Shown here one piece after another: positions 13,491 through 23,461 of a stretch of DNA of 64,000 nt (the stretch's first letter is position 1; every line of letters starts with the position of its first letter). The notes below the pieces were generated by a model. The model was not told the DNA's origin. It did no database searches and saw only the letters and a program-made list of their open reading frames with translations. Source of the stretch: Pelagibacteraceae bacterium AG-345-O09 (GTDB taxonomy: Bacteria > Pseudomonadota > Alphaproteobacteria > Pelagibacterales > Pelagibacteraceae). The DNA lies in the NCBI GenBank assembly GCA_003281725.1, contig QCBC01000005.1, positions 5,140 through 69,139 of the forward strand, given 5' to 3'. Position numbers and translations under genes: made by a program.

Positions 13491-13507
13491 TTTAGAATAA
13501 TTATAAC
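13491..13507. promoter_or_regulatory. Putative Irr operator (ICE) upstream of irr
   Basis: TTTAGAA-TAA-TTATAAC versus ICE consensus TTTAGAA-N3-TTCTAAA (2 mismatches). Confidence 0.6.
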
Positions 13508-13525: not shown

Positions 13526-13924
13526 GTGAAATATACTGAAAAACTAAGAAATTCTGGATTAAGACCAACCAAGCAAAGGCTTCAAATCTGTGAGGTTTTA
13601 TTTAATACTGACAAAACATTTCATTTTACAATAAATGAACTAGAGCAAAAAATTAAAAAACAAACAAATAACAAAATATCATTAGCTACTGTTTATAATA
13701 CAGTCCATGCTTTTGAAAAAAAAGGATATCTAAAACAAATCCCCATTAATTCTAGTGAAACATATTTTGATACAAACGTTACTGATCATCATCATTTTTA
13801 TGATTTAAAAGAGGAAAAGTTGATTGATTTGGAGAATTCAGATGTAGGACCAATAAATATTTTAAAAAAAATTAATGGAAAAAAAATAAAGTCAGTTGAA
13901 GTTCTAGTAAAGCTAGAGGACTGA
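13526..13924 (+). CDS. irr: Fur-family iron response regulator Irr
   Basis: GLRPTKQR, HFT, ISLATVYNT, YFDTN and HHH motif typical of Irr; divergent from fabA as in other alphaproteobacteria. Confidence 0.88.
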   Translation: MKYTEKLRNSGLRPTKQRLQICEVLFNTDKTFHFTINELEQKIKKQTNNKISLATVYNTVHAFEKKGYLKQIPINSSETYFDTNVTDHHHFYDLKEEKLIDLENSDVGPINILKKINGKKIKSVEVLVKLED

Positions 13925-13957: not shown

Positions 13958-13986
13958 TTGACACTTTTTTAGAATCATTATAAACT
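13958..13986 (+). promoter_or_regulatory. Sigma70 promoter of katG overlapped by an ICE operator
   Basis: TTGACA (13958-13963)-N17-TAAACT (13981-13986); TTTAGAA-TCA-TTATAAA at 13968-13984 (1 mismatch to ICE). Confidence 0.7.
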
Positions 13987-14022: not shown

Positions 14023-16260
14023 ATGAGTACTGAAAATTTTAAAAATAAATCTTTTAAAACTGATCAATTAAGTAAATGTCCTTTTACAGGAGCTGGGACA
14101 CCTGCAAAATTTTCTGCGGGAAGAGGTCAATCCGTAAGAGATTTTTGGCCAAATAGTCTTAATCTTAAAATACTTAGTCAACATTCTAATTTATCGAATC
14201 CGATGAATAAAAAATTTAATTACTCTAAAGAATTTAAAAAACTTAATTATAAGGCTCTCAAAAAAGATTTAACAAAATTAATGACAGACTCACAAGAGTG
14301 GTGGCCAGCTGATTATGGTCATTATGGACCTTTGTTTATCAGATTAGCTTGGCACGCAGCAGGCACATACAGAACCGGTGATGGTAGAGGTGGAGCTGGG
14401 ACAGGAAATCAACGATTTGCACCACTTAATTCTTGGCCAGATAACGTCAATTTGGATAAGGCAAGATTACTTCTTTGGCCAATTAAAAAAAAATATGGAA
14501 ATAAGATTTCTTGGGCAGATTTATTTATTCTAGTAGGTAATGTTGCATTAGACTCCATGGGATTTAAAACATTTGGTTTTGGTGCTGGAAGAACTGATAT
14601 TTGGGAACCAGAAGATGATATTTACTGGGGATCAGAAAAAGAAATGCTAGGCGTAGAAAGATATACTGATAAAAGAGATTTAGAACAACCACTTGGTGCT
14701 TCACATATGGGTTTGATATATGTTAATCCACAAGGTCCTGATGCTAATCCAGATCCAAAGCTTGCAGCACATGATATTAGAGAAACATTCGGTAGAATGG
14801 CAATGAATGATTATGAAACAGCAGCTCTAGTGGCTGGCGGACATACATTTGGAAAATCACACGGAGCAGCGCCTGAGTCACACAAGGGCCCTGACCCTGA
14901 AGCTTCAAGAATTCAAGATCAGTCAACTGGATGGAATAGTGGATATAAATCTGGAAAAGGTGTTGATACAATCAGTAGCGGTATAGAAGGTGCTTGGACA
15001 CAAAATCCAATTCAATGGGATATGGGTTATTTAGACTGTCTTTATGATCATGAATGGGAGCTTACAAAAAGTCCTGCTGGTGCTCATCAGTGGACACCAA
15101 AGAAAAATGGACAAAAGATAAAAATGGTTCCTGATGCACACGATAAAAATGTTCTTCACCCTCCGATGATGCAAACAACAGATATTTCTATGAAAGTTGA
15201 TCCAAGTTATGGGCCTATTACAAAACATTTTCATAAAAATCCAAAAGAATTTCATGATGCATTTGCTAGAGCGTGGTTTAAACTAACTCACAGAGATATG
15301 GGGCCAAGAGTTTGTTATCTTGGCAGTGATGTTCCAAAAGAACAATTAATTTGGCAAGATCCAATTGATAAACCAAAATATAGATTAAAATCAAAAGATA
15401 TTAGTGATTTAAAATCAAAAATATCAAAATCCAAACTATCAGTTTCTGATTTAGTTTCTACTGCTTGGGCTTCAGCTTCAACTTTTAGAGGTTCCGATAA
15501 AAGAGGGGGTGCTAATGGAGCAAGAATAATGTTAGAGCCACAAAAAAATTGGAAAGTTAATAATCCTTCTAATCTCTCAAAAGTTATCTTAGCGTTAAAG
15601 AAAATTAAGAAACAATTTGATAATAAAAAGAAAATAGTTTCAATGGCCGATTTAATCGTCTTAGCTGGAGGAGTGGGAGTCGAAATGGCTGCCAAAAAAG
15701 CTGGACATAAAGTAAAAGTTCCATTTTCTCCTGGTAGAGGAGATGCAAGACAAGATCAAACAGATGTGAATTCATTTGGATTATTAGAACCTCAAGCAGA
15801 TGGTTTTAGAAATTATCTAAATGGTGATAAATCAATTGTATCAGCTGAGGAAAAGCTAATTGATAAAGCACAACTAATGGGTCTTACTGCTCCAGAAATG
15901 ACAGTATTAATTGGTGGAATGCGAGTTTTAAATACCAATTTTGATGACTCAACGCATGGAGTTTTTACAAAAAAACCTGGCGTATTAACGAATGATTATT
16001 TCACAAATTTATTAGACATGAATACAACATGGAAAGAAACTGATAAATCTGAGCAAACATTTGTTGGAATAGACAGAAAGACGAAAAAAACTAAATGGAA
16101 AGGTACAAGAGTTGATCTTATCTTTGGATCAAATTCACAACTAAGAGCTTTAGCCGAAGTTTATGCATGTGCAGACTCACAAGATAAATTTGTAAGTGAT
16201 TTTATAACGGCATGGGTAAAAGTAATGAATGCTGATAGATTTGATTTAAGACTTAATTAA
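14023..16260 (+). CDS. katG: Catalase-peroxidase
   Basis: [12 protein letters not shown] distal motif, [21 protein letters not shown] proximal His, duplicated peroxidase domain. Confidence 0.98.
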
Positions 16261-16280: not shown

Positions 16281-16877
16281 ATGGAAAAAGCTATTTTTGA
16301 AGATTTTTATGAAGTACCGAATTTAAATTTTGATATTTCAAGACTAAGGTCAGATTTAGATAAAATACTGAAAAATAAAAAATTCAACTCACCAGGAGTT
16401 ACACATTTTGGTGCAATACCAATAAATCAAATTCCAAATGATGAAAATTCCATCAAAGGAAATAATATAAGGGGTAAATACTGGACAATCGCTGATGATA
16501 CTGGAAAAGAAGTTGCAAGGGATGTGGATATAGATGAATCCAAATATACACAATTAGTACCAGAATTTGAAAAAACTTATTTTAAGGACGTATTCGAAAT
16601 ATTAAGTAAAAAATATAAATTAGGAAGAGTTAGACTTTTGTTAAAAGAACCAAGATCAACTTTAAGTTGGCATAAAGATCCTGAGTGTAGGCTTCATGTA
16701 CCAATTATAACTAATAAAGGTTGTTCGATGGTAATTGAAAATGTTGCAAAACATCTTCCAGCTGATGGTAAAGTTTGGATAACAAATAATACCAAATATC
16801 ATAATTTTTTTAATGGTGGTGAACAGGCAAGAATACACTTAGTAGCATGTGTTCTGGAAAGTCCTTTCAAAAAGTAA
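16281..16877 (+). CDS. Aspartyl/asparaginyl beta-hydroxylase-domain (2OG-Fe(II) oxygenase) protein
   Basis: HKD...RLHVPIITN...HNFFNGG...RIHLV fits the HxD...H facial triad of the Asp_Arg_Hydrox family. Confidence 0.75.
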   Translation: MEKAIFEDFYEVPNLNFDISRLRSDLDKILKNKKFNSPGVTHFGAIPINQIPNDENSIKGNNIRGKYWTIADDTGKEVARDVDIDESKYTQLVPEFEKTYFKDVFEILSKKYKLGRVRLLLKEPRSTLSWHKDPECRLHVPIITNKGCSMVIENVAKHLPADGKVWITNNTKYHNFFNGGEQARIHLVACVLESPFKK

Positions 16878-17114
16878 ATGGAAGTAACAAGTGGCATATT
16901 TAAAGCAGCTGGAAATATCTACAGCAATAACAAAGGTTCTATCTTAAGAACTATTATTTATACAATTGGTCATTTTGCTATCGCTATCACAGTTTTAATG
17001 TTGGTTGCAGATGTGTCTTTTTCTGTGGCATTGACAGATGCAATTGTTGAACCAATCGCTAATTCAGTTTGGTACTTTGTTTTAGACAAGTGGTGGGCAA
17101 GTAAATCAAAGTAA
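16878..17114 (+). CDS. Small membrane protein, DUF2061-like
   Basis: RTIIYTIGH...IVEPIANSVWYFVLDKWW pattern with two hydrophobic helices; ATG abuts the upstream stop. Confidence 0.7.
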   Translation: MEVTSGIFKAAGNIYSNNKGSILRTIIYTIGHFAIAITVLMLVADVSFSVALTDAIVEPIANSVWYFVLDKWWASKSK

Positions 17115-17147: not shown

Positions 17148-17198
17148 TGAGATTAATAATTATTCTCAAAAAAAATACGCTAATAATAATTATTCTCA
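17148..17198. promoter_or_regulatory. Two tandem Fur-family-like boxes
   Basis: Identical 15-mer TAATAATTATTCTCA at 17154-17168 and 17184-17198 (30 bp period); resembles 7-1-7 TGA(T/G)AAT-N-ATT(A/C)TCA. Confidence 0.55.
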
Positions 17199-17243
17199 CA
17201 TATTTTTCTTGAATGAACTTTTTATCATATCTATTCTATAACT

Positions 17244-17423
17244 ATGCAAATCGAAAATTTTAATTGTAAAAAATGTGGTCTTACAATTTCTTCAACTTGT
17301 TCAAAATGTAATAAAGTTGTTGATATTGAGGTTCTTGATGATGGTTGTATTGTACAAAAAACTAAATGCAGTGATTGCGCAAATACTCCTGTAATTAAAG
17401 ATGTTTGTTCGCAGCAAAAATAA
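17244..17423 (+). CDS. 59-aa cysteine-rich putative metal-binding mini-protein (not in ORF track)
   Basis: MQIENFNCKKCGLTISSTCSKCNKVVDIEVLDDGCIVQKTKCSDCANTPVIKDVCSQQK; three CxxC plus two Cys; fills the gap before the convergent SH3 gene; TTGAAT-N17-TATTCT promoter just upstream. Confidence 0.8.
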   Translation: MQIENFNCKKCGLTISSTCSKCNKVVDIEVLDDGCIVQKTKCSDCANTPVIKDVCSQQK

Positions 17424-22596: not shown

Positions 22597-23461
22597 ATGC
22601 CAGAATTACCAGAAGTAGAAATTGTAAGACAATCACTAGATAAAAACATTAAATATAAAAAGGTTAAAAATGTAATAATAAGAAATAGAAACTTAAGATT
22701 TAAAATTCCTTTAAAATTTGAGAATTTTTTAAAAGGTCTGGAAATAACAAAAGTAGACAGATTTTCAAAGTATTTAATTCTATCTTTATCAAACAATAGT
22801 TTTTGTTTGTTACATCTTGGTATGTCAGGGACAATTCATTTAGTATCCAATAACAAAAAAAACTTTTTAACAAATACTAGTTTCTATAATTCTCCAATGT
22901 TACCAAATAAGCATAACCATATAGAAATAATTTTTTCAGATTTAAAGATTATTTACAATGATCCAAGAAGATTTGGTTTTTTACAAATTATAAGAGATTC
23001 AAATTTATTAAAAAAAAAGATTTCAACATCTTGGACCAGAACCATTTTCCTCCAATTTCAATTTAAGTTATATACTCTCATTTTTTAAGGGTAAAAAAAA
23101 AAATATTAAAAATTTTTTGTTAGATCAGAATTTTGTATCTGGTATTGGTAATATTTATGCAAGTGAAATTTTATTTTTGAGTAAAATTAATCCTAACAAA
23201 AAAGGATGTTTATTTAAAAAAAAGGATTGTAAAAAAATTATTATCAATTGTAAAAAAGTTTTATCAAATGCGATTAAAAAAGGAGGCTCAAGTATCAAGG
23301 ATTTTAAGAATACGGAAGGGGAATTGGGTGGTTTTCAAAAAAATTTTAATGTTTATGAAAGAGAAGGACTCAATTGCAAACGATCTAAATGCAAAGGCAC
23401 TATTAGAAAAAAAACTATTTCAAATAGATCAACTTTTTTTTGTAATTTTTGTCAAAAATAA
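22597..23461 (+). pseudogene. mutM: Formamidopyrimidine-DNA glycosylase split by an apparent +1 frameshift at A9 (23010-23018); may be intact in vivo
   Basis: MPELPEVE, HLGMSG, YNDPRRFG in the first frame; RFQHLGPEPF...LLDQ..VSGIGNIYASE and the C-terminal zinc finger in the second; A8 restores one ORF. Confidence 0.9.

Follow-up and report, generated by a model that had tools for sequence, protein, structure and literature searches.

The window, by which we mean the whole 64,000-nucleotide stretch of Pelagibacteraceae DNA that was analysed, carries a run of genes that leads from the iron response regulator irr through a katG cassette to a very small cysteine-rich reading frame, here called the mini-gene (Table 1). 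From their sequences we take the genes before irr to be pnp and fabI-fabB-fabA, and those after the mini-gene are presumably convergent housekeeping genes. The slot after irr holds either katG, the hydroxylase-like gene, DUF2061 and the mini-gene, or, in loci L138-L143, rubrerythrin and a probable Fe-S oxidoreductase; rubrerythrin came directly after irr in 6/6 loci read. The ICE-like box of the katG promoter is matched at 15-16 of 17 positions in 8/8 loci. An Irr-box-like site is also seen before irr itself (window 13491-13507).

Table 1. Genes and sites at the mini-gene locus, in window coordinates.
Feature	Position	Strand	Remarks
irr, Fur-family iron response regulator	13526..13924	+	profile match
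Irr box (ICE)-like site, katG promoter	13968..13984	.	4 nt after TTGACA (13958-13963)
katG, catalase-peroxidase	14023..16260	+	occupies the slot after irr, held by rubrerythrin in other SAR11
Asp/Asn beta-hydroxylase-like gene	16281..16877	+	PF05118 match; katG cassette
DUF2061 small membrane protein gene	16878..17114	+	recurrent mini-gene neighbour, upstream here
Distal Fur-type box	17148..17168	.	three helical turns (30 nt) ahead of the proximal box; A-tract between
Proximal Fur-type box	17178..17198	.	21-bp near-palindrome, ends 10 nt ahead of the -35 hexamer
Predicted -35 hexamer, TTGAAT	17209..17214	+	TTG conserved in position
Predicted -10 hexamer, TATTCT	17232..17237	+	6 nt before the ATG; predicted leaderless start
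Eight-cysteine mini-gene	17244..17423	+	59 aa; C8, C11, C19, C22, C35, C42, C45, C55; conserved D53

A cysteine-rich gene under purifying selection

The original prediction gave the cysteine spacing of this frame as CxxC-x7-CxxC-x12-C-x6-CxxC-x9-C and judged it unlikely to arise by chance. The spacing reads off the translation exactly so, and the 6.5-kDa product has 14% cysteine, a single aromatic residue and no histidine. It is the sole frame of 45-90 residues with at least eight cysteines and three CxxC pairs in the 913-kb genome, and each of ten shuffled genomes contained none. Conservation of the cysteines, which had been proposed as the check, is complete, with all eight kept in 94/94 distinct Pelagibacteraceae coding sequences, amongst which both cysteine codons are in use and D53 is invariant too. 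The median dN/dS is 0.07 (88 pairs), mean pS being 0.56 and pN 0.076, and the mini-gene is under purifying selection.

A protein search gave 150 relatives, and the best 120 of these are 68-93% identical to the mini-protein; among these 120 listed homologues each cysteine is retained in 115-120, C35 in 118 and D53 in 117. All 80 of the mini-gene loci returned from GTDB are titled Pelagibacterales, Pelagibacteraceae or Pelagibacter, and in an order-level survey of 251 genomes strong matches were confined to the genus of the window and two genomes of one other genus. In the databases the homologues are named just 'hypothetical protein'. Searching the literature by text rather than by sequence, with most subscription journals outside the scope, found no paper on the mini-protein or its promoter. 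That the frame is a real, unnamed SAR11 small protein gene is in our judgement practically certain.

Promoter and Fur-type boxes

The promoter described in the original prediction, TTGAAT and TATTCT with a 17-nt spacer, is present as given, and a Shine-Dalgarno-like word is absent from the last 20 nt. On its own this promoter is weak, with 8 of 12 consensus matches, and it went unlisted in a consensus scan; it is credible because it is conserved in position, not because of the strength of its hexamers. The leaderless geometry that had been proposed recurs amongst 64 distinct upstream regions, where TTG stands 33-35 nt before the ATG in 64/64, TAnnnT follows at 16-18 nt in 62/64 and a Shine-Dalgarno-like word occurs in 3/64. 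Among the pieces listed from marine RNA runs of four studies, which are assembled contigs, at least 14 have their left end at 17243-17274, and contigs of two other runs span the promoter region. The mRNA is likely to be leaderless, as predicted from these positions. Such geometry is not supported as a genome-wide habit: 6 of 241 genes have it, while shuffles gave 2.2 on average and as many as 6.

Aligning the upstream regions exposed two conserved Fur-type boxes that the original prediction had overlooked. A matrix was trained on the proximal boxes of relatives only, with the window's own genome and one misregistered row excluded. When this genome was scanned, the promoter of an iron ABC transporter ranked first (27.3, with a second site at 16.4), while the mini-gene boxes scored 24.0 and 20.9 and a site in the gap between the iscR-like and hydrolase-like genes 20.9. 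Six sites exceeded 16 bits, the sixth of them inside a reading frame, compared with 0-2 in five shuffles. Upstream regions of the mini-gene scored above 10 in 64/64 cases, against 0% of shuffles. In five more complete genomes a strict box pattern found the transporter promoter in 4/5, the mini-gene in 4/4 carriers and two other places; with a looser pattern, allowing two mismatches, the counts were near those of a reversed control in 3/5 genomes. The contig also carries a fur gene, close to the window but outside it (G000:C5:2712-3146).

The top-scoring transporter locus encodes an ABC substrate-binding protein, for which NCBIfam gave no specific name, then a permease, an ATPase and azlC, the same order as sfuC-sfuB-sfuA-azlC in PMC2864753. 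The homologous site of locus L124 contains, letter for letter, the P. ubique Fur site published for fbpABC in the supplement of a 2006 reconstruction, in whose Fur table the iron ABC transporter is the P. ubique entry (PMC1698941).

It is the mini-gene that the boxes belong to, since they follow it to several loci with unrelated surroundings, among them those in the second genus at about 53% identity, and of 12 katG loci examined the 11 without the mini-gene (11/11) lack a box whereas the one that carries it shows three. The promoter hexamers on their own are no better than chance, but a chance reading frame, or boxes that serve a neighbouring gene or a divergent small RNA, is hardly credible when the cysteines are invariant at so low a dN/dS and when the boxes travel with the mini-gene and vanish when it is absent. 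A divergent small RNA was rejected for this last reason and because the DNA upstream of the far box is unconserved and Rfam gave no match. We consider it highly probable that the mini-gene is under the Fur-type control that these sites predict, and having two conserved Fur boxes suggests that the signal is iron and not Zn or Cu. The SAR11 iron regulon gains a new predicted member in the mini-gene.

Several other Fur-type sites were seen. In 21 loci (L110 and others among L069-L123) there is a third box, 87 nt further upstream than the proximal one. A conserved box at G000:C3:60198-60218, also found in L313, L315 and L323, is 24 nt before the ATG of one gene and 131 nt before a divergent one, which from their sequences we take to be alpha/beta hydrolase-like and iscR-like respectively. 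Locus L305 has a probable iron permease gene, presumably of the FTR1 type to judge from its motif, with a box that directly abuts TTGACA. A weak site (11.3 bits) at G000:C1:23616-23636 stands 95 nt ahead of a gene like nuoA, which in Caulobacter is activated by Fur (PMC2724300).

The geometry was taken from 114 distinct upstream regions, matrix training rows included. The distance from the start of the near box to the TTG of the -35 is 31 nt in 107/114, 32 nt in six and 30 nt in one. The second box is 30-32 nt away in 92 regions, 50-51 nt in nine, 60-61 nt in seven, 41 nt in two and 22 nt in one, and is absent in three; all five spacing classes are close to whole helical turns (rough chance figure 0.01-0.02). 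The fixed offset suggests contact with RNA polymerase and, together with a second box on the same face of the helix, leads us to infer activation by Fur. In Caulobacter, Fur sites upstream of the -35 belong to activated genes and overlapping sites to repressed ones (PMC2724300). Ten uptake promoters examined here are arranged differently, with boxes that lie head to tail, overlap a TTG hexamer or stand right next to one. As at the mini-gene, the sites of Fur-activated E. coli ftnA, Caulobacter nuoA, sdhC and acnA and Neisseria norB are wholly upstream of the -35, and ftnA likewise has several (PMC2724300, PMC3788343). The mini-gene differs from these in that its near box is only 10 nt from the -35, in its predicted leaderless start and in a product that is neither a ferritin nor a known iron enzyme; published Fur-activated sites are mostly 90-200 bp upstream (PMC3788343). 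The activation reading is weakened because from a proximal box at about -46 to -66 Fur could also act as a repressor that blocks the alpha subunit of RNA polymerase.

Relatives and predicted metal sites

As the original prediction had supposed, no metallothionein, rubredoxin or ferredoxin profile matched the mini-protein, and no characterised zinc-ribbon family matched over its curated cut-off. In Pfam and NCBIfam there was no match above cut-off, and one PHROG of unknown function matched weakly; no solved structure matched better than E 0.17, and in the Atlas only unnamed clusters reached 0.97-0.98, the named ones being below 0.9. The predicted structure of the mini-protein had a pLDDT of 63, and fold searches with that weak model gave nothing usable.

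Sequence comparison places the mini-protein as a derived sister to a large marine family, unnamed and 61-65 residues long, with 1557 relatives that carry only the name 'hypothetical protein' and no Pfam family. The pattern of this sister family is CxxC-x7-CxxC, then C-x3-H (or CxxC), then CCG-x2-M, and it aligns with residues 4-47 of the mini-protein (hhalign 97.8%, E 8.8e-13). Both N-terminal CxxC pairs, the DDG hairpin and C42 are common to the two. The sister family mostly has His as the fourth inner ligand, though some members have CxxC, and is without C35, where Ser, Asn or Thr is mostly found; it ends in Cys-Cys-Gly where the mini-protein has Asp-Val-Cys. D53-V/I54-C55 is found in most of the 120 listed homologues, while Cys-Cys occurs in sister members only (67-68 of 70). 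Upstream regions of the sister family had no Fur box, with 0/5 of those scored and none in the four aligned. Sister-family loci are L021-L024 and L287-L291, and in L287 and L288 DUF2061 is two genes upstream.

The model of the sister family is much better (pLDDT 92.7). The Rpb9 zinc ribbon is at the top of its fold list (Z 3.6, rmsd 2.1, 42 residues aligned) and Ga-desulforedoxin 1cfw gives Z 3.2, rmsd 1.3 and 31% identity over 32 aligned residues, although Z scores of 3.2-3.6 lie in the range that the tool calls common. The desulforedoxin alignment covers both ends, taking residues 1-62 of the model to 4-36 of the chain. Foldseek found no match to the model at E 0.001. The modelled fold suggests that the sister family has a desulforedoxin-like outer site into which a zinc ribbon is inserted. 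Compared with desulforedoxin itself (PDB 1dxg, 1cfw; PF06397), the mini-protein is without the adjacent Cys-Cys, does not match PF06397 and has an extra inner four-Cys site. With zinc ribbons (DZR PF12773, Rpb9, YfgJ) it has CxxC knuckles and a beta hairpin in common, but its gene stands alone and has Fur-type boxes; DZR PF12773 is matched weakly by 39 of the 69 aligned members, with a best E of 5.8e-4, and not by the mini-protein at E 0.05. Rubredoxin PF00301 gave no match at E 1 and NF045720 gave 9.1 bits against a cut-off of 45, the mini-protein having three CxxC pairs and not two. It resembles the metallothioneins SmtA and BmtA in being small and cysteine-rich with a possible buffering role, and differs from them in its regular CxxC pairs, its lack of histidine and of a profile match, and an upstream motif of the iron and not the zinc type.

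The eight conserved cysteines of a real gene agree with the metal-binding type of protein originally proposed, and a two-site metal-thiolate fold is probable. The inner site would be formed by C19, C22, C42 and C45. The outer site, derived from that of desulforedoxin, would be C8, C11 and C55 with either D53 or C35, the latter possibly supplied by another chain; of the two adjacent cysteines one would then have been lost, and the conserved D53 and C35 gained. We infer these ligands, rather than read them from a structure, since for residues 48-59 the alignment is that of MAFFT alone and the mini-protein's own model is poor.

Distribution and candidate roles

The occurrence of the mini-gene was surveyed in one draw of 151 genus genomes, 150 of them at least 88% complete together with the window's own at 78%, and in such drafts a miss does not prove absence. 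The mini-gene is found in 63, the sister family in 13, rubrerythrin in 69 (after removal of two weak matches in long unrelated frames), katG in 75 and DUF2061 in 68; the PF05118 hydroxylase-like profile was left unscored because of a near-universal paralogue. The unpublished genome G210 is in the katG and sister-family counts, and the conclusions are independent of it. Of the 63 carriers 62 have katG, which upholds the co-occurrence originally suggested, 61 have DUF2061, and none has rubrerythrin or the sister family. No genome (0/151) has katG and rubrerythrin together, and 13 katG genomes are without the mini-gene. No ferritin-family protein was found in the 151 genomes at E 1e-9, and SAR11 is reported to have Fur and Irr and to be without ferritin (PMC2864753).

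The mini-gene had been described as the last part of a katG cluster. This is so for 48/63 copies, which are linked to katG, and not for the other 15, which are not within 6 kb of it and with which the boxes move along. The mini-gene is a mobile unit of its own, and not simply the end of that cluster. DUF2061 follows it by 40-55 nt in 7 of these 15 katG-unlinked genomes. In one genome the place of DUF2061 immediately ahead of the mini-gene is taken by a putative 10-TM heavy-metal exporter (PF11449; L331:880-2043), and there are three boxes there.

On an rpoB tree of 130 genomes, built with FastTree from one marker and with poorly supported deep branches, the presence and absence states are interleaved; eight of the 138 genomes with an rpoB match were left off (G106, G131, G152, G177, G197, G201, G210 and G218). 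An origin of the pattern in a single clade was rejected, as the tree requires at least 19 changes for the mini-gene and at least 12 for rubrerythrin. In 16 independent pairs that differ in katG the mini-gene changes the same way in 13.7 and the opposite way in none (p ~1e-4), and for unlinked copies only in 6.2 of 8 and none (p ~0.03). In ten pairs that differ in rubrerythrin it changes the same way in none and the opposite way in 8.6 (p ~0.004), with p ~0.06 for unlinked copies. Much of the association with katG is that of one cassette, since 48 of the 63 copies are linked. It may also reflect habitat, because katG marks offshore, iron-poorer genera (PMC12636525). The exclusivity of katG and rubrerythrin is already stated in a preprint (bioRxiv 10.64898/2026.08.15.744057), and the mutual exclusion of SAR11 KatG and aerobic-type rubrerythrin modules described there (see also PMC5114695) matches the present counts. 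Passages of that preprint mention no small Cys-rich protein, DUF2061 or Fur boxes, though its Table S7 and supplementary text may list the mini-gene.

The reading that we tentatively prefer is that the mini-gene of katG-type SAR11 encodes an iron-thiolate buffer with two metal sites and is leaderless and activated by Fur. Iron-loaded Fur would bind the two helically phased boxes upstream of the -35 and switch on a leaderless transcript; the mini-protein would then bind two iron ions through its cysteines and buffer surplus Fe(II), which would be kept from Fenton chemistry or passed to the small membrane partner DUF2061. Such a buffer would serve katG-type lineages, where the search for ferritin-fold proteins found none. 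This reading is weakened by the poor storage that two ions per 6.5-kDa chain would afford, and four-Cys sites are often zinc sites, which counts against iron. In a fuller version, which is possible but less likely than not, about 40% of Pelagibacter-type genomes, in which no ferritin or rubrerythrin was found, would store or buffer their iron with this cysteine protein. It would be the iron-thiolate equivalent of a metallothionein, derived from a desulforedoxin-like scaffold; two helically phased Fur complexes would switch it on directly from a leaderless promoter, and it would be coupled to DUF2061.

The neighbouring genes bear on the direction of control in both senses. In SAR11 most DUF2061 genes sit in the katG operon, to which their translation is coupled. 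DUF2061 is driven either from this ICE-bearing operon or from a position behind the mini-gene. By prediction Irr represses katG when iron is low (PMC1698941), and with the ICE of the katG operon this means that the katG and mini-gene promoters may both be active in iron-replete cells. The argument is weakened because iron limitation raised SAR11 rubrerythrin, which bears an ICE too, by 1.57-fold (PMC2864753). What speaks most strongly against activation, by analogy, is the Caulobacter DUF2061 gene, which is Fur-repressed and rises 13-fold in iron limitation (PMC3751524).

The mini-protein might instead be an iron-starvation protein, which we consider possible and less likely than iron-induced buffering. 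Iron-loaded Fur, bound cooperatively to the phased boxes, would block upstream promoter contact and repress the mini-gene, and the protein, made at low iron and probably loaded with zinc, would act with DUF2061 to spare or recover iron, for example from heme-containing KatG, much as the ferredoxin Bfd, itself small and Fur-repressed, mobilises stored iron. The Caulobacter values (DUF2061 induced 13.07-fold and 5.99-fold in starvation, and Bfd 57-fold in the same table; PMC3751524) fit this, as do the listing of DUF2061 in the Fur regulons of Shewanella and Vibrio, the seven genomes in which it lies behind the mini-gene, and the near confinement of the mini-gene to katG genomes, which are reported as offshore (PMC12636525). 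Repression, however, needs no fixed offset, yet the 31 nt are kept in nearly all regions; in L025, L285 and L286 it is the distal box that is strong and the proximal one that is weak; and most SAR11 DUF2061 genes are in the katG operon. Nor was a ferritin-family store, or a heme oxygenase (PF01126) that might be its partner, found in the 151 genomes.

A one-electron carrier like rubredoxin or desulforedoxin, or a peroxide-sensing redox switch with C35 as its reactive thiol, made when iron allows and serving the katG module (KatG, the hydroxylase-like enzyme or DUF2061), would seem unlikely. The sister family does resemble desulforedoxin, 59 of its 70 members match an RCKP-type rubredoxin model weakly and below cut-off, and C35 is kept in nearly all listed homologues of the mini-protein. 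In locus L035 (3508-3993) a peroxiredoxin gene (PF08534) directly follows the mini-gene, which is also in favour of such a role. However, no reductase gene recurs beside the mini-gene in the loci examined, and the mini-gene is absent from all 69 genomes with rubrerythrin, the would-be user of such a donor. To our knowledge KatG needs no small electron donor for its catalase activity.

A metallothionein-type Zn or Cu buffer unrelated to iron is more improbable still. The high cysteine content, the single aromatic residue and the putative heavy-metal exporter in place of DUF2061 in one genome would suit it, but the protein has no metallothionein profile match and no histidine, the upstream motif is common to the iron transporter promoter, and the genome has a separate, possibly Zur-like Fur-family gene.

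The mini-gene would be a second, strongly conserved Fur target; it is present in 63/151 genus genomes and tied to katG-type peroxide defence. If iron-induced, it would be a candidate answer to the handling of surplus iron in a streamlined cell without ferritin, and in ocean RNA the ratio of its transcript to that of the transporter would serve as a two-sided marker of iron status. If iron-repressed, the mini-protein would be a new starvation protein.

Elsewhere in the window (22597-23461) a mutM-like gene is apparently split into two reading frames of 163 and 114 residues, either by a frameshift or by an assembly error.
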